In this document: positions 1,115-18,200 of the stretch, in pieces
Numbering within the stretch: position 1 is the first letter of the stretch
How the letters are laid out: every line of letters begins with the position of its first letter
IMG/VR virus record: IMGVR_UViG_3300025168_000100
Coordinates: 1 to 57,893 of that record
Length of the DNA: 57,893 nucleotides
From: a virus
Taxonomy: Duplodnaviria; Caudoviricetes
Strand: one strand, 5' to 3'
Translations under genes and position numbers: made by a program
Notes under the pieces: generated by a model
Database searches by the model: none
The model's input: only the letters and a program-made list of their open reading frames with translations
What the model was told of the DNA's origin: nothing

Positions 1115-1137
1115 AATTAAATCTAAATCTTTTAATC

Positions 1138-1625: not shown

Positions 1626-1753
1626 AAGAGCAGATAAAAAAAGTACTTGAGTACGCTAAAGACCTTCAGCACGCACAAGATGATGAGAGTTACCTAAGTG
1701 ATGGCGAGGTATTAGACATAGTAATTGAACATTTAGAACGTATACTAAAATGA
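1622..1753 (+). CDS. Small hypothetical protein (43 aa; absent from the ORF track)
   Basis: MKEQIKKVLEYAKDLQ...HLERILK fills the gap with ATGA overlaps at both ends. Confidence 0.7.
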   Translation: MKEQIKKVLEYAKDLQHAQDDESYLSDGEVLDIVIEHLERILK

Positions 1754-1980
1754 AAACTATAGAAACAAAGCACGATGGGTGGGATTGTAACCCTCATGTA
1801 AAACGTATAGCTAGAACTATACAATCCTTTAACACATTAAAATATGAGATAGATTCTTGTTGCAGAACGTCAAGCATGAGGGATATCCATGATGATATAC
1901 TATTCTTATCCGAAGAATTGAAGGCGATATCGAATTGCCTTGACGTTAATGTAGAATATAAAACTCTTGATGATGAGTAA
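1750..1980 (+). CDS. Hypothetical protein
   Basis: 76 aa ORF, translationally coupled. Confidence 0.7.
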   Translation: MKTIETKHDGWDCNPHVKRIARTIQSFNTLKYEIDSCCRTSSMRDIHDDILFLSEELKAISNCLDVNVEYKTLDDE

Positions 1981-2260
1981 TAATAAACTAATAGCAGAAT
2001 TTATGGGGTGGGATATTGAATCCCCAACCACACTACCAAGCAACCTACATCTTTCTAACTTAGAGTTAGATAACAACGAGGTTTTGGAATACAAGTACCA
2101 CACCTCATGGGATTGGTTGATGCCTGTAATAGAATCAATTGACCACCTACAATACGAACTCGTACAAGGCATTGAAGATGCATTAGCTACGAGGCACATA
2201 GGAGATACTTACCAAGCAGTAGTAGAATTTATTAAAGCATATAACAATGAAAGACAATAA
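1967..2260 (+). CDS. NKLIxEFMG/SWDWLMPV family protein, paralog 1 (possibly ABA-sandwich-like)
   Basis: Shares three conserved blocks with the next gene. Confidence 0.75.
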   Translation: MMMSNNKLIAEFMGWDIESPTTLPSNLHLSNLELDNNEVLEYKYHTSWDWLMPVIESIDHLQYELVQGIEDALATRHIGDTYQAVVEFIKAYNNERQ

Positions 2261-2531
2261 ACTAATATCAGAATTTATGGGTGCAGGGTGCGATAAAAGG
2301 ACATTCTTCTTTGAAGGGAAGAAAGTGTACTTCTACGACACATCATGGGATTGGCTAATGCCCGTAGTACAGAAGGTAGAAAGTTTAGGATATGTGTTCA
2401 CTATACAAGGTGGTAAAGCTGAGTACGGAGAGATGATAAGTGAAACTCGATGCTTCATAGCAGAGGACAAGCTATCATCTACATACCAAGCAGTAGTAGA
2501 ATTTATTAAAGAGAATAATCAAATCAAATAG
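2247..2531 (+). CDS. NKLIxEFMG/SWDWLMPV family protein, paralog 2
   Basis: Tandem paralog; 28-nt identical block 2210-2237 = 2484-2511. Confidence 0.75.
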   Translation: MKDNKLISEFMGAGCDKRTFFFEGKKVYFYDTSWDWLMPVVQKVESLGYVFTIQGGKAEYGEMISETRCFIAEDKLSSTYQAVVEFIKENNQIK

Positions 2532-2533
2532 AC

Positions 2534-2872
2534 ATGGGATTTTTTAGTTGGAAAACACAAGATACAGACAAGAGTATAGCGAACAACTACTCTGACCGCT
2601 CGACCTTTAAGGTTGTAATGGTCGATGACAAAGGAAACAAGTACATCGAGAAAGATTACGAAGGGTACGGAGTGTTCGGAGGTAAGGACTTCTACGAACT
2701 ACTAGACGAAATGAATGGGGGTAAAGGAAATAGGCTTTCAGGGATAGACCTTGCTTGTAATAAGGAAGGAAAGAAGTTTATTTCTCCTAGTCTTAGTCAA
2801 GCAGGATTGTATTACGATGGAGAGACACCTCAAGATTGTGATGCACAAGGATATTTTTACGATGATGAATAA
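2534..2872 (+). CDS. Hypothetical protein (MGFFSW...YEGYGVFGGKDFYELL)
   Basis: 112 aa ORF in operon context. Confidence 0.8.
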   Translation: MGFFSWKTQDTDKSIANNYSDRSTFKVVMVDDKGNKYIEKDYEGYGVFGGKDFYELLDEMNGGKGNRLSGIDLACNKEGKKFISPSLSQAGLYYDGETPQDCDAQGYFYDDE

Positions 2873-2893
2873 AGAAATAAAAAGCAAGGTCTC

Positions 2894-2925
2894 TTGACTT
2901 TAGTCTAAGGTTGGACGTATATTGC
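2894..2925 (+). promoter_or_regulatory. Early promoter
   Basis: TTG-21 nt-TATATTGC; 2918-2940 matches 56418-56440 at 22 of 23 nt. Confidence 0.65.
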
Positions 2926-2949
2926 ACCATTATTAAACAATTAAATGAA

Positions 2950-3186
2950 ATGAAAAACTATATCTCAAACAATTTAGCACTCATTATATGTACCATCTTT
3001 AGTGGAGCAATGGTGGTTACAATATCGGGAGCAGTTTACTCTCTACTATGGAAAAACTTCCAATCACCTCAACAATTGTTCGCTCTCGATTATTTAGCCA
3101 TAGGTTTTATATGGACTATAGTAACGGGCATTGCTATCATGTGCCTTTATCTTATCGTTCAAAACTACCGAGATGAAGCGGAGTAA
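2950..3186 (+). CDS. Two-TM membrane protein
   Basis: Two hydrophobic segments; ATG 2950 lies after the promoter. Confidence 0.7.
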   Translation: MKNYISNNLALIICTIFSGAMVVTISGAVYSLLWKNFQSPQQLFALDYLAIGFIWTIVTGIAIMCLYLIVQNYRDEAE

Positions 3187-3448
3187 AGAGATACAAAGAA
3201 TATCCGAAGTTCTTAACGAACATAAGATATGGGATAAAGTTGCCGACGCTTTAGGCAAGACTCTTAATCACCGAGAGATAGACTTCTTCCACGACATAGA
3301 GGAATATATATTGGAGGGAATGGACGAAGCTACCGCACCTTATATGTGCAGTTGGTGTGATGACGTTGAGGTAGAAAGCTACAACGCCCCTTGCTCAAGG
3401 TCGTGTAGAGACAACTACTATGACGACAACTTTAGAGAAAAGATATAG
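3173..3448 (+). CDS. Hypothetical protein with C-terminal Cys cluster (CxxC...CxxxC)
   Basis: ATG 3173; CSWC...PCSRSC suggests a Zn finger. Confidence 0.7.
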   Translation: MKRSKEIQRISEVLNEHKIWDKVADALGKTLNHREIDFFHDIEEYILEGMDEATAPYMCSWCDDVEVESYNAPCSRSCRDNYYDDNFREKI

Positions 3449-3521
3449 CTGAAACGGAGCGCACGTTTAATAATTCTAAACAGGTACTAACGTGCTAGGG
3501 GTTCGAGCCCCCTATATATCT
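3441..3521 (+). ncRNA. tRNA-like four-way element E2
   Basis: AGATATA/TATATCT acceptor-like stem; GCT-gaaacgg-AGC D-like arm; GCACGTT/AACGTGC stem with a 21-nt loop; TAGGGG-TTCGAGC-CCCCTA T-arm. Confidence 0.65.
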
Positions 3522-3544
3522 CTAACATTTTATTACAAGAAACG

Positions 3545-3742
3545 ATGATTAACACCACAAAAGAATGGGATTTTATGGACAAGAAAATTAACAACACACC
3601 TTCCGTTGATGCGCTTATGAAAATGCTAGACGCACAACGTGATACCATAGATAGACTTCGTGAAAACTACGACGAGTTATCTAAGAAGTACACCAACCTA
3701 TACGATGAGAACGAGCGTATGCACAACAAGCTGAAGCTATGA
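3545..3742 (+). CDS. Coiled-coil hypothetical protein
   Basis: Heptad pattern in the C-terminal half. Confidence 0.7.
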   Translation: MINTTKEWDFMDKKINNTPSVDALMKMLDAQRDTIDRLRENYDELSKKYTNLYDENERMHNKLKL

Positions 3743-4029
3743 CTAGAGAAGAATTAAAGAATCAACTTAGTAAATCTTTAGGAGATAGGTATATAGATGG
3801 AGGTGGGCTAACATCTCCCGACCCCCCTATCACTGACGACATGATTGAATTGCAGAGCATAGGCAGTGTACTAGATACACATGAGCGCATGTGCTATGCA
3901 GTCATGAAAGACGGAGAGCGCTACGATATACATAGTGGAGTACATGTACATGACCTTGACATGTATGAACTATACGACAATGATATCAGTGAGCAAGACT
4001 TGGATATCATTACGCAGTTCACCGAGTGA
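3739..4029 (+). CDS. Acidic hypothetical protein
   Basis: ATGA overlap; 96 aa. Confidence 0.7.
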   Translation: MTREELKNQLSKSLGDRYIDGGGLTSPDPPITDDMIELQSIGSVLDTHERMCYAVMKDGERYDIHSGVHVHDLDMYELYDNDISEQDLDIITQFTE

Positions 4030-4033
4030 ACTG
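4015..4033. promoter_or_regulatory. GTTCA-N5-TGAAC palindrome (copy 5)
   Basis: CAGTTCAC-cga-GTGAACTG, perfect 8-bp arms; contains the TGA stop of the upstream gene. Confidence 0.75.
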
Positions 4034-4062
4034 AAAGACAAAACCACTAGGAAACCACCGCT

Positions 4063-4082
4063 GACAAAATTATATTTGTCTA
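4063..4082 (+). promoter_or_regulatory. -7 promoter box TATATTTG inside a GACAAA/TTTGTC inverted repeat
   Basis: TATATTTG at 4071-4078; no consensus -33 seen. Confidence 0.55.
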
Positions 4083-4097
4083 ATAAATAATTAAATC

Positions 4098-4319
4098 ATG
4101 AATAAAAATAAAACTTTAGAGGGCTGCCGCAAGATGGCTAAGACGTTAATGACTTCCGATAAGTCGGGAGAAAGAAGAGAGGGCTTGGGCATGATGCGAG
4201 TGATAAGTATGTTGGAAACAGAAGAACGCAACGCTTATCATGGGCGATGGCTTAACTCTAAGAACACCACCGTAGTGAACGGATATCTGTATGCTAAAGT
4301 AAATGATATACCGTCATGA
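4098..4319 (+). CDS. Hypothetical protein
   Basis: 73 aa ORF after an AT-rich leader. Confidence 0.7.
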   Translation: MNKNKTLEGCRKMAKTLMTSDKSGERREGLGMMRVISMLETEERNAYHGRWLNSKNTTVVNGYLYAKVNDIPS

Positions 4320-4603
4320 ATAGTAAAGAGCAGATAAAAGAAACGTGCCGCAAGGTGTACGAACTATTAGCAGAAAAGAATGATGCGTATGGAAACTCAG
4401 CGTTAGAGCCTATCAATATATTTTCTAAGGGCAACGCCTCAGAATCTTTATGCGCAAGGATAGACGACAAACTATCACGAATTAAAAACAGGGGATTGGG
4501 CGACGCCACCGAAGATACCCTATTCGATTTATGTGGCTATTTAATTTTATTACTAATTGCAAATGAGCAAGACAAAACAAAAACTCCTACCACAAACAAA
4601 TGA
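4316..4603 (+). CDS. Nucleotide-modification-associated domain 1 (DUF1599-like) protein
   Basis: KNDAYGNS...RIDDKLSRI...EDTLFDLCGYLIL motif pattern. Confidence 0.8.
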   Translation: MNSKEQIKETCRKVYELLAEKNDAYGNSALEPINIFSKGNASESLCARIDDKLSRIKNRGLGDATEDTLFDLCGYLILLLIANEQDKTKTPTTNK

Positions 4604-4763
4604 TGGAGACAAGCATCTTGATGATGCGTACCACTATGACAAGTACAATGTCAATAGAGAAAGATTGTGTCACACCGCTACCTCAAGCATTATCTATGAT
4701 ATCTTTCAAGATATCGCTGATATAAATTGTGGTAAGAGAAAATTTACAACAGATGAAAGTTAA
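4563..4763 (+). CDS. Hypothetical protein
   Basis: Fills the gap between neighbours; start uncertain. Confidence 0.5.
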   Translation: MSKTKQKLLPQTNDGDKHLDDAYHYDKYNVNRERLCHTATSSIIYDIFQDIADINCGKRKFTTDES

Positions 4764-5070
4764 AATTTTTAATCAGTATGCTACTAAAGTAGCCAAGTTG
4801 TTTGATATTAGTGAAGAAGAACTCTTTACTAAATCTAAACGTAGAGATATAGTAGACGCTAGACAATTACTTTACTATGCGTGTCATAAAAGACCTATGC
4901 CTATTGTATATATCCAAGCTTACTTATTAAAGAGAGGGTATAAGATAGGGCATACGAGTATACTCCATGGTATAAATGCAGTAGACAACCGCATAGTAAA
5001 TGACTCTGACTACACAGGAATTCTTCAGAAGATACACGCGCCTAAATCAAAAGATAATGTACACTCTTGA
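4753..5070 (+). CDS. Stand-alone DnaA domain IV (Bac_DnaA_C)-like DNA-binding protein 1
   Basis: FDISEEELFTKSKRRDIVDARQLLYY...GHTSILHG resembles DnaA C-terminal HTH motifs. Confidence 0.8.
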   Translation: MKVKIFNQYATKVAKLFDISEEELFTKSKRRDIVDARQLLYYACHKRPMPIVYIQAYLLKRGYKIGHTSILHGINAVDNRIVNDSDYTGILQKIHAPKSKDNVHS

Positions 5071-5470
5071 TGAAGTATTTAATCAAGCCTTAGCAGACAG
5101 GTTTGCAGGTAACGTAAATGGCGTGGGCTATGAGGCTAGAATAAATCACGGAACTAAAATTTCAAAGGACGAAGAGACCGGAGAGATAGAGTTATTTAAT
5201 ATCAGCAAAGGTGGTGGTTACTATCTGAAACTCATGGGGTTAGAGATAGAAAGTTTCTTAGAGGGTGGTTGGAGACACGGAACTTATGTGTTATCTTTGT
5301 CTAACAATCGTTCAAGGCTTGACTCTATCGAGCGCTCTATCAGAAGGGAAGTCAATGGCTCAAACAATCCCGCCACACTTCGAGGACTACAAAAGCGCAG
5401 GGTTCAAGCTTTAGAAAGATATTCTTTTTTTAATCAACTAATAAAACAATCTAAAAATGGCGCAGACTAA
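5057..5470 (+). CDS. Hypothetical protein
   Basis: ATG 5057; coupled to its neighbours. Confidence 0.7.
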   Translation: MYTLDEVFNQALADRFAGNVNGVGYEARINHGTKISKDEETGEIELFNISKGGGYYLKLMGLEIESFLEGGWRHGTYVLSLSNNRSRLDSIERSIRREVNGSNNPATLRGLQKRRVQALERYSFFNQLIKQSKNGAD

Positions 5471-6086
5471 ATCTGTATTTGAAACATTGAGTGCTATCAA
5501 TGTAAACGACAAAGTAGAAAAAAAATCTAACCTTACTTATCTATCATGGGCATGGGCTTGGGCAGAAGTCAAGAAGGCTTACCCCGACGCTACCTATGAG
5601 GTTATTAAAGACCCTCAGACTGACAAGCCATGGTTCTTTGACCCTTCACTTGGGTATATGACTATGACTAAAGTAACTATCAAGAATCAATCTCTTGAGA
5701 TGTGGTTGCCTGTAATGGACGGAGCGAATAAAGCTATGCTTGACAAGCCTCGTAAGTTTACTACTCGCTACGGAGAGAAGTCTGTTGATGCTGCGTCTAT
5801 GTTTGATATAAACAAGACTATCATGCGTTGCTTAACAAAGAACCTCGCTATGTTTGGGTTAGGGCATTACCTCTATGCGGGTGAAGACTTTCCTGAAGTA
5901 AAGCCTGAGGTTGTTGAGCCTAAAGTATTAAAGGTAGGTGATGACAATTGGGTAAACATCTTAAAGTATATGGCTCAGAACAAAGAGCTTGGCTTAGAGA
6001 AAATTGTAGAGCAACTTAACAGTCGTAACTATAAGGTAACTCCTTCTGTTAAGAAGGCTCTTACCAAAGTTATAGCTAAGTCATGA
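5457..6086 (+). CDS. Single-strand annealing recombinase (DUF1071 / Sak-type, Rad52-like)
   Basis: VNDKVEKKSNLTYLSWAWAW...INKTIMRCLTKNLAMFGLGHYLYAGEDFP. Confidence 0.88.
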   Translation: MAQTKSVFETLSAINVNDKVEKKSNLTYLSWAWAWAEVKKAYPDATYEVIKDPQTDKPWFFDPSLGYMTMTKVTIKNQSLEMWLPVMDGANKAMLDKPRKFTTRYGEKSVDAASMFDINKTIMRCLTKNLAMFGLGHYLYAGEDFPEVKPEVVEPKVLKVGDDNWVNILKYMAQNKELGLEKIVEQLNSRNYKVTPSVKKALTKVIAKS

Positions 6087-6817
6087 GTGAGGATATCATC
6101 TTAAAGCTAAGGGATGATGAGCATTACTATGGAGATTTTGGAAAGCAGTTTCTTTCTAACTCAGACATAGGTGCATTGCTCAAGAACCCTACATCTTTTA
6201 AGGAAAGGATACCTGACAACGCGGCCTTCGCTAAGGGCAGATACTTTCATCACCTCATCCTTGAGCCTGAGAAGGCAAAGGAGTGGAGCTTTGTAAGTGT
6301 AGCCTCTCGCAATACTAAAGCATACAAGGAGTATTGTGCGGAGAACGACGTGCCTTTTGCGTTGCTTGAGAAAGAACGTGACGAGGTAGAGTCGTTGGTA
6401 CACACCATGCTTTCTAACTTCCAATTCTTTGAGGATATCAGAGATGGAGGATGTGAGTATGAAGTGCCGGCAGTTGCTACCATACAAGGTGAGAGATGGA
6501 AAGGGAAGGCAGACATAGTACATCCGGAAATGATTATTGATTTGAAAACCACTTCTGATATATATAGTTTTAAGTGGAGCGCAAAGAAATACAACTATGA
6601 CAGTCAAGCTTATCTGTATCAACAGATGTTTGGTAAGCCATTGGTGTTCTATGTGGTATGTAAAACCACAGGGTTACTTGGAGTGTTTGAACCTTCACCT
6701 GAATTTTTAGAGGGAGGAGAAAACAAGGTGGCTCAGGCTATTGAAGTGTATCGTAAGTTCTATGGACAATCTCCATCAGAAGATATAGATGCCTATTTTA
6801 TTAACGAAATTTTATAA
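6083..6817 (+). CDS. RecE/exonuclease VIII-like PD-(D/E)XK exonuclease (DUF3799-like)
   Basis: LSNSDI, KGKADIV, IIDLKTT and YNYDSQAYLY motifs; adjacent to the SSAP. Confidence 0.85.
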   Translation: MSEDIILKLRDDEHYYGDFGKQFLSNSDIGALLKNPTSFKERIPDNAAFAKGRYFHHLILEPEKAKEWSFVSVASRNTKAYKEYCAENDVPFALLEKERDEVESLVHTMLSNFQFFEDIRDGGCEYEVPAVATIQGERWKGKADIVHPEMIIDLKTTSDIYSFKWSAKKYNYDSQAYLYQQMFGKPLVFYVVCKTTGLLGVFEPSPEFLEGGENKVAQAIEVYRKFYGQSPSEDIDAYFINEIL

Positions 6818-6853
6818 CGTGTCATCAGACACATAACCTTTAATATTTTTCAT

Positions 6854-7141
6854 ATGGAAAAAAGAGAAAAGATTTTCCCTGACGGGATTATTTGTAAGCC
6901 AAAAAATAATGGCGCACCTGACTTTGTATTGTGCAAGATGTCTTTTAATGTAGAGCAAGCTATTGCTACACTAAAGACACACTCAAAGAAAGGATGGGTA
7001 AACATGGACATGCTTATGTCTAAGGAGGGGAAGCCTTACTTAGAGATAGATACATGGGAGCCTGACCCAACTAAAGCTTCAGCACCTAAAGCTGCACCGG
7101 AAGTTGTGTTAGAAGACGCGGGAGAAGACCTGCCCTTCTAG
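6854..7141 (+). CDS. Putative ssDNA-binding protein
   Basis: Small beta-rich protein with acidic tail ending EDLPF; located in the SSAP-exonuclease module. Confidence 0.65.
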   Translation: MEKREKIFPDGIICKPKNNGAPDFVLCKMSFNVEQAIATLKTHSKKGWVNMDMLMSKEGKPYLEIDTWEPDPTKASAPKAAPEVVLEDAGEDLPF

Positions 7142-7145
7142 TGTT

Positions 7146-7197
7146 GAGAAGAAGGGGGACGACCACGTTGAAAATATATAGTCCCCCTTCGTTTCTC
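7146..7197 (+). terminator. Long GC-rich stem-loop (terminator or processing site)
   Basis: GAAGGGGGAC(7151-7160)/GTCCCCCTTC(7181-7190), extended by GAGAA/TTCTC. Confidence 0.5.
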
Positions 7198-7204
7198 ACT
7201 TAAC

Positions 7205-7352
7205 TGCTTGCACCGTATTAGTAGTAGTAGTATATTTACTCTCTACTTTTTTTCTTCCCTATGTAAGAAATAAATTAACATTATCAGCATCCTACTGATA
7301 ACCAACACTTTACTCAACACAAAATCAACACAAAGATGACACAAGACGTCAC
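7205..7352. other. Origin-like module A
   Basis: (TAG)4 tract, T-rich stretch, near-consensus IHF site (7300-7312) and AACAC repeats at about 11-bp spacing, just upstream of the primase. Confidence 0.5.
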
Positions 7353-9750
7353 AATCTTTCGCAACATTAAGGAAACGCAGACAGCATACCATGTGGATAT
7401 CAATGTAGTTCTTGATAGAATTAAGAACGGAGCTACTAAAGATTTGGTTAAGCTAATCAGAGCTGAGAAGAATAAGAACGAGCGCAACGAATTAAAGAAA
7501 GGGTTGCCCGCTATTTGTTTCAGTGGCATCTTCAATAAAAGAAATGACTCTTCTCTTGTTTCACACAGCGGAATCGTTTGCTTAGACTTCGATGGGTATG
7601 AGAAGAAAAAAGATTTGCTTACTCACAAGGAGCAGTTAACCAATGACCCTCATGTTTACTCAGTGTTTAACTCACCGTCAGGCAATGGCCTTAAGGTTTT
7701 AGTTAAGATACCCGCTGACCCTGACAATCATGTTAACTACTTCAATGCTTTAGAAAAGCATTTCGACTCACCCAACTTTGATAAAGCTTGCAAGAATATT
7801 TCTAGGGTATGCTATGAATCTTTTGACCCCCTCATATTTATTAATGAGAACTCATCTCTGTGGGATAAGATTGATGAGCCTGAATATAAAGAGCTTGTAG
7901 CTAGAAGAGACCCGCCTTCTATTCCTATAACCGATGAGAACAAGATAGTAGACATACTAATCAAGTGGTGGACTAAGAAGTATCCTATGGTAGAGGGGCA
8001 GAGGAATCAGAACACTTACGTCTTAGCTATGGCTCTCAATGACTATGGCATCAATAAAAGCCTAGCCTCTTATGTGCTCAATAACTACGCAAGTCAAGAC
8101 TTTAATGAAGCTGAGATACAAAGAACTATCGACTCAGCTTATGCTCATGAACAAAACTTCGGGACTAAATATTACGAGGACGAAGACCGAGTAAGTCAGA
8201 TACGCTCCAAGATGAAACGCGGTGTGTCAAAAAAAGAGATACGCTATCAACTAGAAGAGACTGCGATTGATAGTGATACCATAGAAGCAGTTCTTAATAG
8301 AGTAGAAGAGGAGAACTCTATGCAAACTTTTTGGGATAAGAACGACAAGGGTGTAATTAAAATAGTACACTTTTTATTTAAGCAATTCTTAGAAGACAAC
8401 GGGTTCTATAAGTATTGTCCGGAAGGAGGGAAGAACTACGTCTTTGTTAGAGTTACTAATAACTTAATTGACCACACCTCTGAGAAAGAGATTAAAGATT
8501 TTATTCTCAATCATCTCATACAGCTTGATGATATTACGGTTTACAATTACTTCGCTGACCACGTAAGATTTTTTAGAGAGGAGTTTCTTTCTCTCTTGTC
8601 TACAATAGATATATACTTTATTGAAGACAGTAAAGACACCTCTTACTTATACTACCTCAACTGTGCTATAAAGATTACTAAAGATTCAGTGGAGACCATA
8701 GACTACTTAGACCTCGATGGCTACGTATGGAAAGACCATGTGATAGACCGGAAGTTTGCTCTATGTGATTACACTAAAACTATATACGGAACATTTATAT
8801 CTCGTATATGTGGAGATAATAAGCCTCGGATATCTACCATGGAGTCAACTATAGGATTCATGATGCATGGGTATAAGAACTTATCTTACTGCCCCGCTGT
8901 AATCCTTAACGATGAAGTGATAAGCGATAACCCTGAGGGAGGTACGGGCAAGGGGTTGTTTATGAATGCCTTAAGCCACATGAAGAAGCTCGTGGTAATA
9001 GATGGTAAAGCTTTTGCTTTCGAGAAGTCTTTCCCATATCAGTTGGTGTCAGCAGATACACAGATACTATGCTTCGATGACGTTAAAAAGAACTTCGACT
9101 TTGAGAGATTGTTCAGTGTAGTAACTGAAGGGTTAACACTTGAGAAGAAAAACAAGGACGCTATTAAGATTCCTTTCAGTAAGTCCCCCAAGATTTCTAT
9201 TACTACTAACTATGCAATCAAAGGGACGGGTAATTCTTTTGCTCGCAGGAAATGGGAGATAGAATTACATCAGCACTACAATAAAAACCACACTCCTTTA
9301 GACGAGTTTGGTAAACACTTCTTTGCCGATTGGAATGATGAAGATTGGTGTAGCTTCGACAACTATATGGTTAAATGTTTACAAGGATATCTTGACACAG
9401 GTTTAATCAAGTCTCAGTTTGTAAACCTTAAGGTTAGGCAGCTATCAGCCGCTACGTGTCATGACTTTATAGAGTGGTGTGGTCTTATAGGAGATAGTAA
9501 CAACCAACACTTAGAAAGCGGTGGTAAACTATCTATGCAAGAGCTGTACTTAGACTTCATTGTAGAGCACCCTGACTACGCTCGTGGTGGGAAGATGACG
9601 ATAAGTCTGAATCGTTTTTACAAATGGTTAGTGGCCTATGCAGCTTACATAACAGGAGTGTCCCCGGAGTTGGGTCGTGACCCATCAGGGAAGTGGATGC
9701 GCTTAAGAACAAAACATGAATTAGAAACTCAAACAACAATTGAAATATGA
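7336..9750 (+). CDS. Primase-helicase (BT4734/VirE_N-like N-terminus, PriCT, P-loop helicase)
   Basis: KKGLPAICFSG, HSGIVCLDFD, SPSGNGLKVLV, EGQRN (PriCT), Walker A GGTGKGL, Walker B ILCFDD. Confidence 0.88.
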   Translation: MTQDVTIFRNIKETQTAYHVDINVVLDRIKNGATKDLVKLIRAEKNKNERNELKKGLPAICFSGIFNKRNDSSLVSHSGIVCLDFDGYEKKKDLLTHKEQLTNDPHVYSVFNSPSGNGLKVLVKIPADPDNHVNYFNALEKHFDSPNFDKACKNISRVCYESFDPLIFINENSSLWDKIDEPEYKELVARRDPPSIPITDENKIVDILIKWWTKKYPMVEGQRNQNTYVLAMALNDYGINKSLASYVLNNYASQDFNEAEIQRTIDSAYAHEQNFGTKYYEDEDRVSQIRSKMKRGVSKKEIRYQLEETAIDSDTIEAVLNRVEEENSMQTFWDKNDKGVIKIVHFLFKQFLEDNGFYKYCPEGGKNYVFVRVTNNLIDHTSEKEIKDFILNHLIQLDDITVYNYFADHVRFFREEFLSLLSTIDIYFIEDSKDTSYLYYLNCAIKITKDSVETIDYLDLDGYVWKDHVIDRKFALCDYTKTIYGTFISRICGDNKPRISTMESTIGFMMHGYKNLSYCPAVILNDEVISDNPEGGTGKGLFMNALSHMKKLVVIDGKAFAFEKSFPYQLVSADTQILCFDDVKKNFDFERLFSVVTEGLTLEKKNKDAIKIPFSKSPKISITTNYAIKGTGNSFARRKWEIELHQHYNKNHTPLDEFGKHFFADWNDEDWCSFDNYMVKCLQGYLDTGLIKSQFVNLKVRQLSAATCHDFIEWCGLIGDSNNQHLESGGKLSMQELYLDFIVEHPDYARGGKMTISLNRFYKWLVAYAAYITGVSPELGRDPSGKWMRLRTKHELETQTTIEI

Positions 9751-10214
9751 AAAAGAAAAGTCTAAAAGTCTCAAACAAAGGCGTCGTAAGAGGCAAGCTA
9801 AAGCCACGCGCCGAGCGTCGTAAAGCAGAACGTGAGAACGGGTACAAAGCCATGCTTAAAAAGCTTAACCTGACGCAGGAAGAGATGGATAACTTAACCA
9901 ACACAGGGGAGGTGGTTGAATACGAAACCAATAAGTATTACACAGGACCTTCAGAGGTACATGGTGAAGGTGTGTTTTCCGTAAGAGATATTTTACAGCA
10001 TGAGATAATAGGCTTGGGAACGATTGATAATATCCACAAGACTTTGCTTGGTAGATATACAAACCACTCGTCTCAACCTAATGCTAACTTCTATATGCTT
10101 CGTAATAGCGACCTCGTATTGATTGCCCTTGAGAATATACAGGCGGATGAGGAAATCTTTTGTGATTACTCTCACCACAATAGACCAACAAGCGAGACTG
10201 ATGAAGCACTTTAA
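9747..10214 (+). CDS. SET-domain protein-lysine methyltransferase with a basic N-terminal extension
   Basis: SEVHGEGVFS, RYTNHSSQPNA and IQADEEIFCDY match SET motifs GxG, RxxNHSxxPN and ELxxDY. Confidence 0.9.
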   Translation: MKKKSLKVSNKGVVRGKLKPRAERRKAERENGYKAMLKKLNLTQEEMDNLTNTGEVVEYETNKYYTGPSEVHGEGVFSVRDILQHEIIGLGTIDNIHKTLLGRYTNHSSQPNANFYMLRNSDLVLIALENIQADEEIFCDYSHHNRPTSETDEAL

Positions 10215-10776
10215 GGATAGAGAGTTAGAGTTTACCGACACAGCTATCCTTGACCCTGAGTTAGGAGATAGTGTAGTGATGCACGGTTGGGAAGATTCTA
10301 TTATGAAACGAAAGGCAGAGTTTATATGTCAGGGTGGTGGGCATATACTTGAGTTTGGTTTTGGTATGGGTATATCAGCAGACTATATACAGTCTCATGA
10401 CATTGCATCGCATACCATATGTGAGATACACCCTCAGGTTTTACAACGTCTGTTTAAGTGGGCAGAAGATAAGCCCAATGTTATAATCATGGCGGGAGAT
10501 TGGCAGGATAATATTCCTAGTATGGATAAGTATGACGGCATCCTCTTTGATACCTATCAAGACTCAGGCAATCATCAGCGTAAGTTTAAGGAGTTGCTCC
10601 CTACTATATGTAATCCTAACTGTAAAGTAACGTGGTGGAACAACGCCCCTGAAACCATAACCAATAACACTATGGGCTTGGAGGGTGTAGACTACGAGCA
10701 AATGATAGTGAACGTGCCTAGCAACCCTTACTATTGGGGCAACAAATACTCCCTGCCTAAATATATTTTCTCATGA
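10201..10776 (+). CDS. Class I SAM methyltransferase, RMT2/GAMT-like (guanidino N-methyltransferase family)
   Basis: VMHGWEDSIM, GGHILEFGFGMGIS, HTICEIHPQV and YDGILFDTY parallel GAMT/Rmt2 motifs. Confidence 0.85.
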   Translation: MKHFKDRELEFTDTAILDPELGDSVVMHGWEDSIMKRKAEFICQGGGHILEFGFGMGISADYIQSHDIASHTICEIHPQVLQRLFKWAEDKPNVIIMAGDWQDNIPSMDKYDGILFDTYQDSGNHQRKFKELLPTICNPNCKVTWWNNAPETITNNTMGLEGVDYEQMIVNVPSNPYYWGNKYSLPKYIFS

Positions 10777-12002
10777 TAAGCTTTCGTGACTACCAAGAAG
10801 ATATAATACATCAGGGTACAGAGATATTAATATCCAAAGGACTACTGTATTTAGCTATGGAAGTAAGAACGGGTAAGACTCTTACAAGCCTAGGTATTTG
10901 TGATAAGCTAAGGTGCGATAATGTACTGTTCATTACAAAGAAGAAGGCTATATCTTCTATCACTGATGACAGTGATAAGCTATGTCCATCATACAGTTTG
11001 TTTGTAATAAACTACGAATCGCTACACAAAATACCCGAGATTAAGTGGGATGTTATAGTGTGTGACGAGGCGCATAGCATGGGCGCTTTCCCTAAGCCAA
11101 GCAAGAGAGCTAAGGCTGTGCGTTTGTTAGTGAAGAAGACGAAGGCTAAAGTTATTCTCTTGTCCGGCACGCCGACACCTGAGTCTTACTGTCAGATGTA
11201 TCATCAAGTCTATGGTATACCAACCAATCCTTTCCGTGAGTTCAAAAACTTCTATCGCTTCTGCGACAAGTATGCTCTTGTAAAGCAAAGAAAGATAAAC
11301 GGTCTAATGATTAATGATTACTCTCACGGGCTTGAAACTATCCTTGAGATAATGAAACCTTATACTATAAACTATACGCAGAAAGAAGCGGGGTTTAAGG
11401 TAGACACTCGGGAACATGTGCTTCAAGTGCAGATGTCTCCTATGGTATATGGTCTTACGAAAAAGCTGAGTAAAGATTTGGTAGTAGAAGGTGAGGAGGA
11501 AACCATCCTTGCTGATACTCCCGTTAAGTTAATGATGAAGCTGCATCAGTTATATTCAGGGACTATAAAGTTTGAGTCGGGCAAGTCGTTAGTAATAGAC
11601 TACAGCAAAGCAGAGTTTATCAAAGAACATTTCAAAGGTAAAAAGATTGCAGTATTCTATAAATTTAAAGAAGAACTTAACGCTTTAAAAGAAGTGTTCG
11701 GCACTGAGTTAAGCACTGAGTTAAGTACGTTTGCTTCTACAGATAAGAACATAGCACTACAGATTGTAAGTGGGCGTGAAGGTATATCTCTGCGACAAGC
11801 TGACGCTTTAGTATATTACAACATAGACTTTTCAGCTACAAGTTATTGGCAATCAAGGGATAGGATGACAACCAAAGATAGATTAGAGAGCGATGTATAT
11901 TGGGTGTTTGCTAACGGAGGTATTGAAAGAGATATATATAAGGCGGTAACTAAGAAGAAAGATTACACACTACGTCACTTTAAGAAGGACCATGAACTTT
12001 AA
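10773..12002 (+). CDS. SF2 (SNF2-like) helicase
   Basis: RDYQ Q-motif, RTGKT, VCDEAH, LSGTP, QSRDR. Confidence 0.88.
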   Translation: MISFRDYQEDIIHQGTEILISKGLLYLAMEVRTGKTLTSLGICDKLRCDNVLFITKKKAISSITDDSDKLCPSYSLFVINYESLHKIPEIKWDVIVCDEAHSMGAFPKPSKRAKAVRLLVKKTKAKVILLSGTPTPESYCQMYHQVYGIPTNPFREFKNFYRFCDKYALVKQRKINGLMINDYSHGLETILEIMKPYTINYTQKEAGFKVDTREHVLQVQMSPMVYGLTKKLSKDLVVEGEEETILADTPVKLMMKLHQLYSGTIKFESGKSLVIDYSKAEFIKEHFKGKKIAVFYKFKEELNALKEVFGTELSTELSTFASTDKNIALQIVSGREGISLRQADALVYYNIDFSATSYWQSRDRMTTKDRLESDVYWVFANGGIERDIYKAVTKKKDYTLRHFKKDHEL

Positions 12003-12369
12003 TAACGATTTTAGATACGACTTAGAAGTAGGTCAAGAAGGAGAGAGACTCGTAGACGCGTTGTTTAAATCTAAACGCATAGAAGTAAAGAGAGATAGTT
12101 GGGTAGGTAGAACGGGTAACATCGCAATTGAATACGAGAGTAGAGGTAAACCATCAGGCATAGCTACCACCGAGGCAGAGTATTGGATAATTATATTTTC
12201 TCGAGAGTACGAAGACAAAGTAATGCTTGTGTTGGAAACTAAAAGGCTAAAGGAAGTGGCAAGAAAATATCTCAAGGATGGGAGTGTTAAATATATGGGA
12301 GACTCAAACACCTCTAAAGCTGTATTAATTCCTCTTTCAGAAATTAGTAACTTTACTGTACATGACTGA
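11992..12369 (+). CDS. PD-(D/E)XK nuclease-fold protein
   Basis: GQEGE...IEVKRD...TGNIAIEYESRGKPSGI. Confidence 0.65.
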   Translation: MNFNNDFRYDLEVGQEGERLVDALFKSKRIEVKRDSWVGRTGNIAIEYESRGKPSGIATTEAEYWIIIFSREYEDKVMLVLETKRLKEVARKYLKDGSVKYMGDSNTSKAVLIPLSEISNFTVHD

Positions 12370-12601
12370 GCAGAAAATACAATTAAAACGAATTAAGCAA
12401 TTAGAAGCTGAAGGATACTATGTGATTAAGTTAATTCAGACAAATAAAAACGGGATACCTGACCTGATTGCTATACCACCTGACTCTAATGTTATCTTCA
12501 GCGAGGTCAAAAAACCTAAAGGAAAACTGTCGCGTTTACAGGAGTATAGATTAAAAGAGCTAGAATCATATGGACGAACTGAGGTTTACAGGGGCGCTTG
12601 A
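12362..12601 (+). CDS. VRR-NUC nuclease / resolvase
   Basis: TEQKIQ, GIPDL, FSEVKKPKGKLSRLQ. Confidence 0.85.
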   Translation: MTEQKIQLKRIKQLEAEGYYVIKLIQTNKNGIPDLIAIPPDSNVIFSEVKKPKGKLSRLQEYRLKELESYGRTEVYRGA

Positions 12602-12908
12602 TGGCGTAGAGTATGAGATTGATGAATGGTTTGTAGAAAGTTTAGAACCGTTTAGTGTAAAAGATAGAAATTATATTTTACAATCTGTTATACCTACATT
12701 AAGTTACTTACCCATAGATAACAACTTCACACAAATAGTGGGCGGGGTTATAAGAAAAGACGAGCCTTTGTTTTTCTTTATAGAATACTTAAGTCAAGAC
12801 CATGATGCCGTCTTACTATTAGATGTTATGGAGATTACGTCGGACGAATATTTAGATTTAATTTTAGAAAATAATACACTTGAATATTATGCAAACAGAA
12901 AAGATTGA
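12570..12908 (+). CDS. Acidic hypothetical protein
   Basis: 112 aa ORF in operon. Confidence 0.7.
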   Translation: MDELRFTGALDGVEYEIDEWFVESLEPFSVKDRNYILQSVIPTLSYLPIDNNFTQIVGGVIRKDEPLFFFIEYLSQDHDAVLLLDVMEITSDEYLDLILENNTLEYYANRKD

Positions 12909-13428
12909 CTCAGAGTCATATAGATTACAACGAATTACAGAGCGAGTCTTTGGGGTGAAGATTCACTCACGTAGACGTAGCCGACCTGAGGTAGACGCTC
13001 GCTTTGTTTTTAGTTTAATTATGAAAGAAAGAGGGTATGGAGTAACTAGACTTGGAAGACTTCTTAACAAGAACCACGCAACTATTATTCATTATTGGAA
13101 GAATGCAGAGTGGTATATGAAGACTGACGCCGCTCTTAAACGTAAGTATGACGAGGTATCGCAAGAGTTTTATGAGTCTGTTGAGTCTTTAAATGTTGTT
13201 AACAGAGCTATGTTTGAAAGAAAAATAGACGTTTTGGAGAAAAAAAATAAACAATGTATATTGGACTCTAAAGATTTAAAGCTTGAAGTACAGCAACTTA
13301 GGAAAGAGGTAGAGCCTTATAGATTATATAAAGAAATCCTTGACCTAGTAATGGAAAGAGCGAGACCGAAAGAGATGGAGTATACTAAAAAGAAATTAAA
13401 TACCTTTTTCAATGGCTTATACAGTTGA
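12889..13428 (+). CDS. DnaA domain IV-like DNA-binding protein 2 with C-terminal coiled coil
   Basis: SRRRSRPEVDARFVF...LGRLLNKNHATIIHY. Confidence 0.78.
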   Translation: MQTEKIDSESYRLQRITERVFGVKIHSRRRSRPEVDARFVFSLIMKERGYGVTRLGRLLNKNHATIIHYWKNAEWYMKTDAALKRKYDEVSQEFYESVESLNVVNRAMFERKIDVLEKKNKQCILDSKDLKLEVQQLRKEVEPYRLYKEILDLVMERARPKEMEYTKKKLNTFFNGLYS

Positions 13429-13648
13429 AGACATAGACAAGATAGTAGAGTTTACTACTTGGAATGATAAAAAAAAGATTGACGAACTTTTACATATGGA
13501 TGCAAAGATGTATTGTAATCTAGGAATAGATTCTTTACAATCCGAGCGAACAGATGTTAAAAAAAATTCTGTGAAAATATATAGAGCTATTAAAAGAATT
13601 AGCCCTACTCTCGGTCAGAGCTTATTATATCATGTAGATAAAAAATAA
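13412..13648 (+). CDS. Hypothetical protein
   Basis: 78 aa ORF, coupled. Confidence 0.75.
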   Translation: MAYTVEDIDKIVEFTTWNDKKKIDELLHMDAKMYCNLGIDSLQSERTDVKKNSVKIYRAIKRISPTLGQSLLYHVDKK

Positions 13649-13649
13649 A

Positions 13650-13841
13650 ATGGAACGCCCCTCAGCTATAGAACAAGATAGAATAGACCACATCAACCAC
13701 TTGATGCAAAAACTTCATGACGCTAATGCTTCTATATATGAGGGTCTGATGGATAGAGACTTTACTAACCTACCTTTTATCATAGGTATGCAGATAGAGC
13801 TGCTACAAGAGATAAGTAATTCACTTCAAGATGAGCACTAA
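13650..13841 (+). CDS. Hypothetical protein
   Basis: 63 aa ORF, coupled. Confidence 0.7.
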   Translation: MERPSAIEQDRIDHINHLMQKLHDANASIYEGLMDRDFTNLPFIIGMQIELLQEISNSLQDEH

Positions 13842-14547
13842 AGATTTTAGACCACGCCTGTCAGGAGCTAAGAAAGTAGCCTTTGATAACTTAACTAAGA
13901 AGGAGAGAAGGATATTAGTAGTAGGGGATATACATGCACCATTTACTTTAGACGGATACCTTGAGTTCTGTAAAGAAGTCTATGACAAATACCTATGCAA
14001 TCAAGTTATCTTCATCGGAGATATTTTAGATAATCATTACAGCTCATACCATGAGACCGACCCGAATGGTTTGTCAGGTGGAGACGAGCTTGATATTGCT
14101 ATAGCTCAGGTAGCTCAGTGGTCGGAGGCTTTCCCTGTTGCTGATGTAATCATAGGTAATCATGACCGTTTAATAATGAGGAAGGCATTCTCTTCAGCTG
14201 TACCTAAAGAGTGGATTAAATCTTACAACGAAGTGCTCGGTACAAATTGGAATTGGACGGAAAGAATTGTGTATGACAACGTACAATTTGTCCATGGCGA
14301 AGGCGGGACTGCCCGTACCAAAGCGCGTAACGATATGATGAGTACAGTTTCCGGTCACATCCATACGCAGGCTTACTGTGAATGGCTCGTGGGCAGGAAC
14401 TTTAAAGTATTCGGGATGCAGGTGGGGTGTGGAATCGACGCGAGCAGCTATGCCGCAGCTTATGCTAGAAACTTTCGTCGCCAAGCTATTGGATGCAGCG
14501 TTGTGCTTGGTGGTCACACAGCTATTAATTGCTTAATGGAACTATAA
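13831..14547 (+). CDS. Calcineurin-like metallophosphoesterase
   Basis: GDIH, GDILD, GNHD, VHG and GHIH motifs. Confidence 0.9.
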   Translation: MSTKDFRPRLSGAKKVAFDNLTKKERRILVVGDIHAPFTLDGYLEFCKEVYDKYLCNQVIFIGDILDNHYSSYHETDPNGLSGGDELDIAIAQVAQWSEAFPVADVIIGNHDRLIMRKAFSSAVPKEWIKSYNEVLGTNWNWTERIVYDNVQFVHGEGGTARTKARNDMMSTVSGHIHTQAYCEWLVGRNFKVFGMQVGCGIDASSYAAAYARNFRRQAIGCSVVLGGHTAINCLMEL

Positions 14548-14702
14548 TGATTTGTCCTAAATGTACAGACCCTATGATATGGGGTAGCGATTTTGATTAT
14601 GAAGACTACGGATACGAAGGCGAAGGCATCGTAGGAAACTATACCTGCACCAATAAACATTGTGATGTTGACATGGTAGTAGTATATACTCCTATTGATT
14701 AA
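14547..14702 (+). CDS. Small Zn-ribbon protein (51 aa; absent from the ORF track)
   Basis: MICPKC...IWGSDFDYED...YTCTNKHC; TAATG overlaps at both ends. Confidence 0.75.
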   Translation: MICPKCTDPMIWGSDFDYEDYGYEGEGIVGNYTCTNKHCDVDMVVVYTPID

Positions 14703-15118
14703 TGAGGTTTGAGAATGACAGCCACTTAGAAAGAGAAGAGAGGGCTATAAAAAAGTTTTGCTCTTTGCATAACCTTAAGTGTAAAAAGTTAGGCCCAAAT
14801 GATATTGACTTTCAGATACGCAAAGACAATAAGGTAATAGGTTTTGTAGAAGTAAAGGGTAGACATAAAGATATTAAGGATGCATATCCTTTGCCTATTG
14901 CTATTAGAAAAATACATAAACTTCAAGGTGAGCACGGGCCTCGCGTAAACCCCATCATTATATGGGCGTGTCACGACGGCATTATCTACGGTAAGTTGGT
15001 GAAGCTTAAAGGAACTATTCGATTAGGTGGTAGACCTCCACGCAAGGGGGCTGTCAATGACCAAGAGATAATGGCTTACTATAATAAGCAAGAAGACATA
15101 CATCATGAACAATATTAA
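14702..15118 (+). CDS. PD-(D/E)XK endonuclease-like protein
   Basis: DIDFQI...FVEVKGR. Confidence 0.7.
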   Translation: MRFENDSHLEREERAIKKFCSLHNLKCKKLGPNDIDFQIRKDNKVIGFVEVKGRHKDIKDAYPLPIAIRKIHKLQGEHGPRVNPIIIWACHDGIIYGKLVKLKGTIRLGGRPPRKGAVNDQEIMAYYNKQEDIHHEQY

Positions 15119-15242: not shown

Positions 15243-18200
15243 TTATTCAGTAGCTTCTCTTATTGCTTCTCTTATTTCTTCTCGAGCCTCCCTGTTAACT
15301 TCATCTATGTCTCCATATATATCTTCGTAAATCTCAGGGTATAATTTTTTAAAGTCTGTCTTACTCATCTTATCAGCCCCTCCTGTTTGAGCTCCTTCAT
15401 TTTTTGGCCTATAAGATGACGACACTCCAATAAGGTCATACACATCGCTTTCTATACCTTCTTCTGAACCACCACCAATTAAATTGTATAACCCTATAGC
15501 AGGGTCAACCCTTGTTCCTAAGATAATCTCTATGATAGGTTTGATTTTTCTATCAAGCCTAGACTCTCCCGTTTCTTTATCTTTTTTAGCAGCCTTTTTA
15601 ATTTCATATATTATCATATCAAGAGGGTTGACTACATCACTCTTGAACTGCGCACCGTAGCTTGGCTTAAAATCTTCTCCTTGAATAAGCTTCGCCCCGA
15701 GCTCCATTTGTTTTACGTTAGCACCAAGGAGAGGTATCTGATAAACTAAGTTAAGACCCATCATAGCTTCAGCTATTCTAGCATAAGCTTTTTCTTTATC
15801 CTCTTCGTCTCCTTTGGTAAGCAGCATGATGTTTGCCATTGTAGTAAACAAGACGTTTGCAATAGCATAGTTCATAACTAATCCCCTATAGTCTTCCGAC
15901 CTTCCTCTTTGAGCATATATTTTTTTAATTGATTCCTTGGCTTTTTGTTTAGTAGAAAAATCTGCATTGGCAATTTCATCTACTGCATTACCATACGAAT
16001 TCATAAGGTTCTTCGTATACTGCATAACCTTATTAATCTGTAAAAATATAGTGCTACCAAACATTATGAAAGGTCTGATAAGAGGGTGACGTATATTTTG
16101 AAGAGGAATTCTTTCAGTTGCCCTACGTGTCTGCTGCGTAGCGTTGTAGTTATTAAAAACTTCAACAGCTTGCTCTTGACCCATTCCGTTTTTAATATTC
16201 CTACGATAGTTAACCATATATCCTAATACTCCACCTATATCTCCAATAGATGTCGTCGCTCCGGCTGCGGTACGAGCTCCTCTTAGTACACGCCCTGCTT
16301 TGGTTTTACTCTTCTTTATTTTTCCCTTAGGGTTTTGCCCCGACTCAAGACCGTATACGTCGCCTTCCAATCCTTGAGCAATACGCTCATCAAAAGTAGC
16401 TGACATTTCTCTAGCCTTAGCTAACGGTCCGTCTTGTGTAAATATCTCTATTCCTAACTCAGCTATTAAGGTAGCTGTGTCTACCATAAACATTACCAAG
16501 TCGATAGGATTAGACACAACTTTAGGTACGTTACTATTTTCCCCAAAGTATCTGTAATTAGTAACAGCCATCGCAAACGAAGACGCCTGCTTAGGTATTT
16601 GCATAACCTTATATGCAAGAGCAAACCCTGTGTACTTTCTTGAAAGCGCGTCAATTATATTGTCGGCATTGGAAGCTTTGACTCCTGCATTAGGATTTAT
16701 ATGGTTGTTTATCAGTTGCTTTAAAGTGCTTTTTACAAATAGCTCATCTAACAAAACATCTACAGCCTCAATATTAAAGAACTCATTAAGCTGTCTTACA
16801 CCCTTAGCATAAGCCTTATACTTCTCCATGGTGTCAATATGATTTTCTAGTACTCCTGTAAATGAAGCATCAAATAGAATTGCACCTTCGGTATCAGTAC
16901 GCTCTTTCAAAGCAGGAGCCGTATCCGCGTTAAAGATGCCGCTGAAATCTCCGTCAGTTAACATCTTGCCGTCTACATTTGACTGCTCTGTACGTGTAGG
17001 AAAGTAGTTAGGAATAAAACCTAAGTTTACATCATTAACATCAGCGTATACATTGTTTACGGAGTCAAAATAAACCTCACTTAGATACTGTACTACTATG
17101 TCTGCAAAACCTACAAGCTCCGGACCAAGCTCTGCTTTAATTCTTTCTAAAGTTCCTGCATCAATACCTTGAGCTTCAAGCTTGGCACGTTGAACTTCAT
17201 TAAGACTAAGTGCATATATTCTTAAGAGCTCATCTGTATTAAAAGCTTTCTTGTACGTCTTACCATCTTTAATTAATTGAATAGTAAGTTTGGTCTCTTT
17301 AAATATACCACGCTCCATAGCTTGCTTCACCCCGGCGTACCCCTTCTCAAAGCCTGCTCTTTTAGCTAACTCATTCATTACCGCACGCATCTTTCTTTTC
17401 CCTTTAGCGTGAGTCTCTACCATGCGGTTAAGTCTATTGTAAACTTTTTCTCTAAATACATTTTTACCGTCCACTACTTTATCAGCAAGATTAGTAATGG
17501 TTTCACTATGTATCATGTTTCCTCTCATAAAGTTTCTTATAAGACTTGGGATAGAACTATCAAGTATCCCCCTCCCTATAGCACGCAAACCTTTTACTAC
17601 CCCCTTTTCTTTGAAGGATTGGTAGATATTTTTTCGGTTGTCTTTACGTTGGTCTTCGTTTAATACATTACCGTCTTCATCAAAGAACTCAGGGTTTGTT
17701 TCTTGGATTTGTTCTGTTACTTCTTTAGATTCAGCTTGATATTCAGCTGCACGTTGAGCTCTCTTTTCTTTCAGCTTCGCTACAGATTCTGCAGTTAGTT
17801 CGTTGATAGTGCTAAGAACGCCCTGCATTTCTTCCTCCGTCATGTTATCTACGTTGCGTAACATGTCAAAAGCTATCTGCCTATCCATTAACGCACGCTC
17901 TTTACGAGTTAAGGTCTCGCCTTCTAAGAGTTCTTTATTGTATATCCTATTTATCTCAGCTTCATTATCCTGCAAGAACTTAGCTTCCGATTGTAAGAAT
18001 GCCTGCCTTATATCTGCACTGCTCTGAATAACACTCTTCGCTACTCTCTTCAAAGCTGTCATAAGGTTCTGTATAGAGGGGTCTACACCTGTACTCCTTC
18101 TCTTGCCGCTCTGAGTCTTACGTACTTTAACTTTAGATTTAATAGCATTAACAATATCCTTTAATGTACTCTTACGCTTTCTGTTCTTTTGGCTGTCTAT

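Follow-up and report, generated by a model that had tools for sequence, protein, structure and literature searches.

SET-domain enzymes methylate lysine residues of proteins. Among them, vSET (the A612L protein of virus PBCV-1; PDB 3kma), which methylates H3K27, and PFL0690c (4rz0) are stand-alone SET domains of about 120 residues that lack the pre-SET and post-SET zinc clusters. Guanidino groups are handled by a different type of S-adenosylmethionine (SAM)-dependent enzyme, represented by guanidinoacetate methyltransferase (GAMT; 1xcj, 1khh and 3orh; Pfam family PF27704), and yeast Rmt2 is a protein arginine delta-N-methyltransferase of ribosomal protein L12. Here we analyse a stretch of viral DNA, the 57,893-bp IMG/VR virus record IMGVR_UViG_3300025168_000100 (estimated completeness 96%; hereafter the window), in which a gene for a minimal SET-domain protein (positions 9747–10214, + strand) is followed by a gene for a GAMT-like protein (10204–10776, + strand). 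An initial annotation had read the two as a coupled cassette writing methyl groups on lysine and arginine. We find no conserved two-gene cassette, because the genes occur independently in relatives and in other phages. We lean towards the explanation that two separately acquired accessory methyltransferase genes met in a variable slot, where they would be co-transcribed early and would act independently.

Both proteins resemble their closest described counterparts in the catalytic core and depart from them at the periphery. The window SET protein shares with vSET and PFL0690c the stand-alone architecture without zinc clusters, and with vSET the viral origin and the GxG, NHS..PN and ExxxDY motifs; vSET and the Plasmodium falciparum enzyme are its best fold matches. 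It differs from vSET by an extra helical hairpin and a basic tail, and the two sequences are 19% identical. Because the host of a phage is a bacterium, histone H3 is no target for this enzyme. The GAMT-like protein is homologous to GAMT from a VM..WE motif to a C-terminal PP..Y motif, with motif I (E.GFGMG) and an aligned Glu and Asp retained (TMq 0.81). However, it has 190 rather than 236 amino acids (aa), its N-terminal lid is shorter and unconserved, and a stretch of about 40 residues that follows strand 5 in GAMT is missing. It also differs in that its clade is specific to phages and set apart by a long branch, in having no amidinotransferase partner and in the fibre-like proteins that are the usual neighbours of its relatives. 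Rmt2 belongs to the same GAMT-type superfamily and sets a precedent for protein arginine as acceptor. It is much larger and carries an N-terminal extension, whereas the phage protein is a bare catalytic domain. GAMT-like genes of uncultured marine phages that lie beside fibre genes belong to the same phage-specific clade (34–56% identity); the window copy differs from them in lying within a replication operon beside a SET gene, in a genome that contains neither of their partner families.

The primase–helicase junction is a fast-turning slot

The two methyltransferase genes lie in a tightly packed run. The left border of the slot is a primase/helicase-type replication protein of 804 aa (7336–9750, +; Pfam BT4734-like_N, E = 6.7e-21, PriCT_1 and DUF5906; phrog_28855 and phrog_18375, DNA primase/helicase), and the right border is an SNF2/ResIII-type helicase of 409 aa (10773–12002, +; Pfam SNF2-rel_dom, ResIII and Helicase_C; phrog_62). 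Each consecutive pair among the four genes is joined by an overlapping stop and start. The primase stop and the SET start share ATGA at 9747–9750, the SET stop and the GAMT-like start overlap by 11 nt (10204–10214, +), as expected for translational coupling, and the GAMT-like stop and the helicase start share ATGA at 10773–10776. The GAMT-like open reading frame (ORF) is open from a TTG at 10123, and the ATG at 10204 is the likely start, in agreement with the N termini of homologues. No terminator-like site was found on the + strand between 6800 and 12600. The coordinates confirm the earlier description of two overlapping genes between primase and helicase.

To place this arrangement among related phages, we retrieved 80 loci by helicase alignment (L251–L330; 66–80% identity), of at least 554 such contigs; 76 of them span the junction. 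Their primases are 54–83% identical to that of the window, and the gap between primase and helicase ranges from 0 to 1977 bp. In 24 of the 76 loci the junction is empty, with the primase abutting the helicase (gap of at most 42 bp), which supports the earlier view that the genes are inserted. Neither methyltransferase gene is present at 74 junctions; a SET gene of another subtype occupies the other two, and a GAMT-like gene is found in none of the 76. The 99 ORFs that fill the slot fall into 53 clusters, including DUF3310, DUF3850/ASCH, DUF1599, the second SET subtype and many unknowns. The closest retrieved relatives (L252–L255; primase 81–83% and helicase 79% identical) carry neither gene in the slot. 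A further syntenic relative, L230, has the order primase–SET–helicase; its genes abut or overlap at the junctions, and its 18.8-kb contig carries no GAMT-like gene at any position. The junction is a hypervariable, fast-turning accessory slot.

Contig joints that skip about 1.6–2.0 kb between primase and helicase were seen in runs X5, X7 and X8; they probably derive from related phages and were left out of the evidence.

The two genes seldom occur together

A SET gene within about 5 kb of a viral GAMT-like gene was found in 0 of 83 loci. The reverse search returned a GAMT-like gene near a viral SET gene in one locus of 80 (L165), where the two are not adjacent but lie 1.4 kb apart with a fibre gene between them. 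Positive controls for this neighbourhood test were recovered in 83/83 and 80/80 cases. At the level of whole records, a SET gene is present in 2 of 50 GAMT-like records and a GAMT-like gene in 1 of 50 SET records, never side by side; of the two GAMT-like records that also hold a SET gene, the one that was placed has its SET gene tens of kilobases from the GAMT-like gene. Near-identical strains from two other studies, which differ by about 1.5–2.7%, keep the contiguous arrangement and show stability at strain level only. The co-occurrence and synteny check that had been set beforehand thus found the genes to be independent in relatives and the pair to be kept only in near-identical strains. With these counts, the empty or differently filled junctions and L230, the claim of a coupled cassette or paired writer system is not sustained. 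The pairing is specific to a narrow lineage within a fast-turning slot.

An alternative is that the SET and GAMT-like enzymes act as a dual writer, methylating lysine and arginine of the same target or targets, either as a complex or in sequence. We consider this unlikely. The candidate targets would be host proteins, the phage chaperonin, small basic proteins of the phage or the N terminus of the SET protein itself, which resembles a histone tail. The counts given above speak against such a writer, as does the usual context of the GAMT-like gene, which is a fibre module. Several observations nevertheless weigh for it or against separate acquisition. The two genes share a stop/start overlap within one operon and are kept in the sampled near-identical strains from two other studies, as a functional pair would be. 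Only the narrow lineage with a GAMT-like neighbour has the basic Lys/Arg-rich tail on its SET protein. The record-level co-occurrence of 2/50 is higher than the uncorrected rate at which either gene turns up in IMG/VR contigs, an excess that shared ecology or ancestry can explain. In a metagenome-assembled genome (MAG) of a deltaproteobacterium (L162:4628–6051), a GAMT-like gene of 245 aa sits between a 79-aa remnant resembling a protein arginine methyltransferase (PRMT) or PrmA and a SET-like gene, all of them abutting on one strand. This locus independently brings the two types of gene together, the GAMT-like one first, and hints that the enzymes can be allied. It is the sole such case among 80 cellular loci, however, and it looks degraded: the SET-like gene is broken into two ORFs, and its Pfam match falls below 1e-5. 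Two further points against our explanation concern the GAMT-like family, namely that the tree placing the window copy (see below) comes from a quick search only, and that some bacterial homologues are domains of non-ribosomal peptide synthetase (NRPS)/polyketide synthase (PKS) proteins or lie beside polyamine genes, so that the family at large includes small-molecule chemistry.

The differences listed between strains comprise four in the GAMT-like gene, all synonymous, and six synonymous and three nonsynonymous ones in the SET gene. In one contig of run X5, a G>A change at window position 9964 gives SET G73D at the nearly invariant glycine of the GxG motif; this may reflect variation between strains or a fault in the assembly.

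It appears very improbable that the slot is a recombination hot spot in which one gene, or each of the two, is carried along as a decaying or inert passenger and contributes nothing to infection. The rapid turnover of the slot and the G73D variant would fit such a history, but both genes look functional, with intact frames and all family-invariant residues present. The AlphaFold2 models of both proteins are confident, the differences listed for the GAMT-like gene leave its protein unchanged, and the genes are tightly packed in the operon. In RNA run X20, 0.05 of the sampled words were present.

A minimal SET protein with a lineage-specific basic tail

The 155-aa product of the first gene matches the Pfam SET family (PF00856) at 40.4 bits, against a gathering cut-off of 22.4 bits (E = 4.1e-10). 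It contains the three SET signatures, HGEGVF (GxG), GRYTNHSSQPNA (RYTNHS..PN type) and EEIFCDY (ExxxDY, with the Tyr), which serve in SAM binding and catalysis and include the catalytic tyrosine. Residues Arg103, Asn106, His107, Asn112, Glu136 and Tyr141 are invariant in a 40-sequence alignment. The AlphaFold2 model has an overall predicted local distance difference test (pLDDT) score of 79, with values of 81–97 per ten-residue block over residues 31–140 and above 90 over residues 61–140. Foldseek places vSET (3kma; TMt 0.65) and P. falciparum SET (4rz0) first (E = 3e-6), followed by MLL1/3 and EZH2, and 191 PDB structures match the model at E ≤ 0.001. Profile and fold searches therefore uphold the initial annotation of this protein as a SET enzyme with full motifs. 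By analogy with the family, it is predicted to place one or two methyl groups on a protein lysine.

A full HMMER scan of 1.84 billion representatives yielded 656 relatives of the SET protein at E ≤ 0.001, and 526 IMG/VR contigs encode such relatives. Among the relatives listed, most are stand-alone proteins of 120–150 aa, and many others carry a C-terminal SET domain within proteins of about 220–320 aa. The atlas clusters nearest to the window protein are 88–100% viral. PADLOC gave no match for the SET protein, and a query of metagenome contigs with it returned distant matches only.

The SET core is preceded by a conserved helical hairpin (residues ~21–52), seen in both the alignment and the AlphaFold2 model. 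Residues 1–32 (9747–9842, +) include 13 Lys or Arg, compared with an isoelectric point (pI) of 4.8 for the core, and residues 1–19 have pLDDT values below 50, consistent with disorder. This basic tail is present only in the window protein and its closest relatives (P0103–P0107, with P0104–P0107 at 62–88% identity); it is found neither in the other 34 aligned SET proteins nor in that of L230. Viral SET genes (L165–L244) often adjoin a gene for a GroES-like co-chaperonin, which accounts for 28 of 157 neighbouring proteins, and GroEL accounts for three.

The second gene encodes a GAMT-like methyltransferase

Sequence and structure searches agree on the identity of the second protein. In a phmmer search of the PDB, GAMT is the sole family matched (four distinct sequences, best E = 5.5e-16), and with a family profile it is again the sole match (E = 1.9e-32). 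The AlphaFold2 model (pLDDT 91.7) aligns with human and rat GAMT (3orh and 1xcj) at TMq 0.78–0.81 and E = 9e-14 in Foldseek; the next fold, spermidine synthase, follows at E = 1e-7, about six orders of magnitude weaker. In BFVD, a protein labelled 'putative guanidinoacetate methyltransferase', from an uncultured marine phage, ranks first (TM 0.90). Precomputed PF27704 assignments, for which the atlas name is GuanidinoAc_N-MeTrfase, are present on 102/102 homologues found by word search and on the nearest atlas clusters. A Pfam scan with a model set lacking PF27704 returned a sub-threshold match to Methyltransf_25 only, NCBIfam gave nothing above cut-off, and PADLOC gave a weak generic methyltransferase match only (mad2, 21.8 bits). 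The earlier assignment to the GAMT/Rmt2 type is thus corroborated, with GAMT the sole PDB family by sequence and the best by fold.

Conservation within the family centres on the cofactor and acceptor sites. Across 31 family members, Glu50, Gly52, Phe53, Gly54 and Gly56 of motif I, EFGFGMG(IS), are invariant, and Met55, Glu30 and Asp116 are each conserved in at least 90%. In the alignment with GAMT, VMHGWE pairs with VMERWE and DGILFDTY with DGILYDTY, such that the acidic Glu and Asp coincide. We take Glu30 and Asp116 to be the counterparts of Glu45 and Asp134 of rat GAMT, the guanidino-binding pair. In GAMT, these acidic residues hold and deprotonate the guanidino group. Because the SAM motif and both acidic residues are kept, we infer that the phage enzyme methylates a guanidino nitrogen.

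At least 496 IMG/VR contigs encode GAMT-like relatives. No fused forms were found among the longer homologues of the window protein, a weak negative since Hint-fused forms exist at 34% identity. One such form, of 360 aa with a Hint-like C-terminal domain (L002–L004:5977–7062), is flanked by proteins of 750–1210 aa that consist almost wholly of Thr/Ser/Asn repeats.

Viral GAMT-like genes usually sit in a fibre module

We derived the usual context of the family from 83 viral GAMT-like loci (L002–L084). Upstream, 68 of 78 neighbours belong to one fibre-like family of variable length (151–1365 aa), some members of which match Mtd_N and tail-fibre PHROGs. A C-terminal motif is shared by 67 of the 78 upstream proteins, and a hidden Markov model of it matches 72 of the 83 loci. 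The domain has an invariant Arg and ends in ..VR(V/I)(V/I)GY..IYFNPDNTFVE(I/V)A or ..SGR(S/T)..YFNPS.., as in ..VRVIGY..IYFNPDNTFVEIA, and in 46 of the 72 loci it occurs in two to five ORFs. No tail made of a glycine run followed by Arg-Gly was seen among the 78 upstream proteins. Downstream, 66 of 82 neighbours belong to a single family of about 230 aa with a faint resemblance to CBM96. In L005–L084 the GAMT-like gene is therefore mostly the middle member of a trio of fibre-like, GAMT-like and ~230-aa genes, as at L012:783–4637. Neither the fibre-like partner family nor the ~230-aa family was found in the window genome, and the target of the window enzyme therefore cannot be those two neighbours.

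A quick maximum-likelihood tree puts a branch of 1.23 (Shimodaira–Hasegawa-like approximate likelihood ratio test, SH-aLRT, 99) between the phage clade and 77 cellular rows. The window gene and P0001, which is 91% identical to it, fall within a starred subclade of 11 rows. Of the other nine members, eight have the fibre-type C-terminal domain encoded upstream in their loci, and the ninth comes from a locus without an upstream ORF. Because the window copy nests in a fibre-module clade yet its genome lacks both partners, it appears to have moved from the fibre module into the replication operon.

The acceptor of the GAMT-like enzyme

The nature of the guanidino acceptor separates our explanation from a third alternative, in which the GAMT-like enzyme is a small-molecule methyltransferase encoded by an auxiliary metabolic gene (AMG). 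It would make creatine from guanidinoacetate, or act on agmatine, arginine or guanidine, and the SET gene would be unrelated cargo. In this complete form we judge the alternative improbable. It is favoured by GAMT being the sole solved relative by sequence and the best by fold, and by conservation of the guanidino-binding acidic pair. Cellular homologues point the same way, since they include C-terminal domains of NRPS/PKS proteins and genes that lie beside those for S-adenosylmethionine decarboxylase or ornithine/arginine decarboxylase. In the part of their report covered here, Tian et al. 2024 (PMC11360552) find that, of all AMGs, the viral gene annotated as GAMT (K00542) is the most strongly enriched in viruses, and a survey of P2-like viruses (PMC13100340), likewise covered in part, repeats the viral GAMT claim. 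The published call, as far as the covered part of the report goes, rests on KEGG annotation. Against a metabolic role, a gene of the amidinotransferase/arginine deiminase (ADI) family occurs in 0 of 50 GAMT-like viral records, and Pfam reveals none in the window, although the host is a possible source of guanidinoacetate. The position of the gene within a fibre or structural module in most phage loci would be odd for a metabolic gene. Finally, the phage clade is set apart from the cellular enzymes by its long branch and by its lack of the ~40 GAMT residues after strand 5.

Between the two kinds of acceptor, protein arginine is slightly favoured over a small guanidino compound. We lean this way because the clade is linked to structural modules, because no amidinotransferase gene accompanies it in the 50 records and because conservation of the GAMT N-terminal lid is lost. 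The small-molecule acceptor keeps nearly equal weight because GAMT is the closest relative, because some cellular homologues are NRPS/PKS-fused or polyamine-linked and because the literature reads the viral gene as a creatine AMG. The earlier caveat that the substrate may be a small guanidino molecule therefore stands.

Several bacterial GAMT-like domains lie within ORFs of about 1200–1865 aa and reach their 3' end (L095, L096, L098, L106, L108, L112, L117, L118 and L123). The bacteria concerned are Oxalobacteraceae, Acidobacteriota, cyanobacteria and Planctomycetota, and the flanking genes encode KR/PP-binding or AMP-binding_C/PP-binding proteins. This setting suggests guanidino N-methylation in natural-product synthesis for the assembly-line domains.

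On the explanation that we favour, that of separate acquisition, the 1.0-kb segment would be cargo in the hypervariable slot of a widespread lineage of uncultured marine phages with genomes of about 55–65 kb, and two unrelated SAM-dependent methyltransferase genes would have come to adjoin there. The SET protein would be a minimal vSET-like enzyme from the large group of 120–150-aa viral SET proteins, to which this lineage has added a disordered Lys/Arg-rich tail. The GAMT-like gene would be a member of the phage-specific clade relocated from the fibre module to the early replication operon. Together with the replication genes, the two would form a single translationally coupled run that is expressed early. 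The SET enzyme would act on a host or phage protein, and for the GAMT-like enzyme protein arginine side chains would be the slightly preferred acceptor.

Genome context

The slot belongs to a + strand block (101–15118) that encodes DnaA-like helix-turn-helix proteins, a Sak annealing protein, a PDDEXK nuclease, the primase, the helicase, a VRR-NUC nuclease and a metallophosphatase. The remainder of the window lies mostly on the − strand and encodes a P22-like portal, a protein with a crAss-muzzle domain, two giant ORFs and GroEL/GroES. The giant ORFs (15243–22049, −, 2268 aa; 26401–31899, −, 1832 aa) have no Pfam match and flank the protein with the crAss-virus muzzle C-terminal domain (25500–26381). 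GroES and GroEL are encoded at 51778–53639 (−). Near them lie small, very basic ORFs at 53685–54285 (−; 27–31% Lys/Arg) and 50512–50915 (−; 21–24% Lys/Arg), with pI values of 10–10.5, whose products could be DNA-binding or internal virion proteins.

A Pfam scan detected no 7-deazaguanine or other DNA-modification genes in the window, and a DNA-modification context for a guanidino or amidino methyltransferase was rejected on this ground. Positions 7000–13000 gave no megablast match among GenBank phages. In tblastn, the helicase matched a single uncultured record at 66.7%, and cultured phages were distant (26–33%). Because the megablast search was empty and the tblastn matches were distant, no cultured relative or host can be identified.

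Implications for methylation during phage infection

Recent reports place protein methylation within phage infection. In the covered part of a proteomic study of Cellulophaga (marine Flavobacterium) infection, lysine and arginine methylation was described on phage and host proteins, including dimethyl-lysine on phage GroEL and methylated arginines in the tail fibre (PMC13288928). The same part of that study states that its phages encode no known methyltransferase. Host-dependent methylation of a tail protein is essential for infectivity according to the portion covered of another report (PMC13445384). The main text of PMC8226683 contains no occurrence of GAMT, and the literature consulted, supplements excluded, describes neither a phage SET and GAMT-like pair nor a characterised phage SET enzyme. 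SET and PF27704 are known families; the GAMT-like clade of phages and the SET protein with its basic tail are variants of them without characterised members.

The observation of both modifications in a marine infection lends some support to a dual writer. A bolder form of that reading would make the locus the first phage-encoded dual protein-methylation module, in which an early, coupled pair of writers, SET for lysine and the GAMT fold for arginine, would act on basic targets such as the tail of the SET protein, the phage proteins of 27–31% Lys/Arg near GroEL/GroES, the chaperonin or host proteins, and would more broadly recast the 'GAMT creatine AMG' of ocean viruses as phage protein-arginine methyltransferases; we regard this as distinctly unlikely. 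Viewed as a cassette, the locus is unremarkable and amounts to two accessory genes within a slot that turns over fast.

The wider interest lies in the two enzymes themselves. The virus-enriched 'GAMT' that has been read as a creatine AMG (PMC11360552, in the part covered) belongs to the phage-specific clade that is usually found in a fibre module. Because this clade sits in a fibre module without an amidinotransferase partner, the metabolic reading of viral GAMT merits a direct test. Phage-encoded candidates for both lysine and arginine writers are timely, given the recent reports of methylation during infection, and this phage offers both candidate writers within a 1-kb piece of DNA that can be cloned and assayed.

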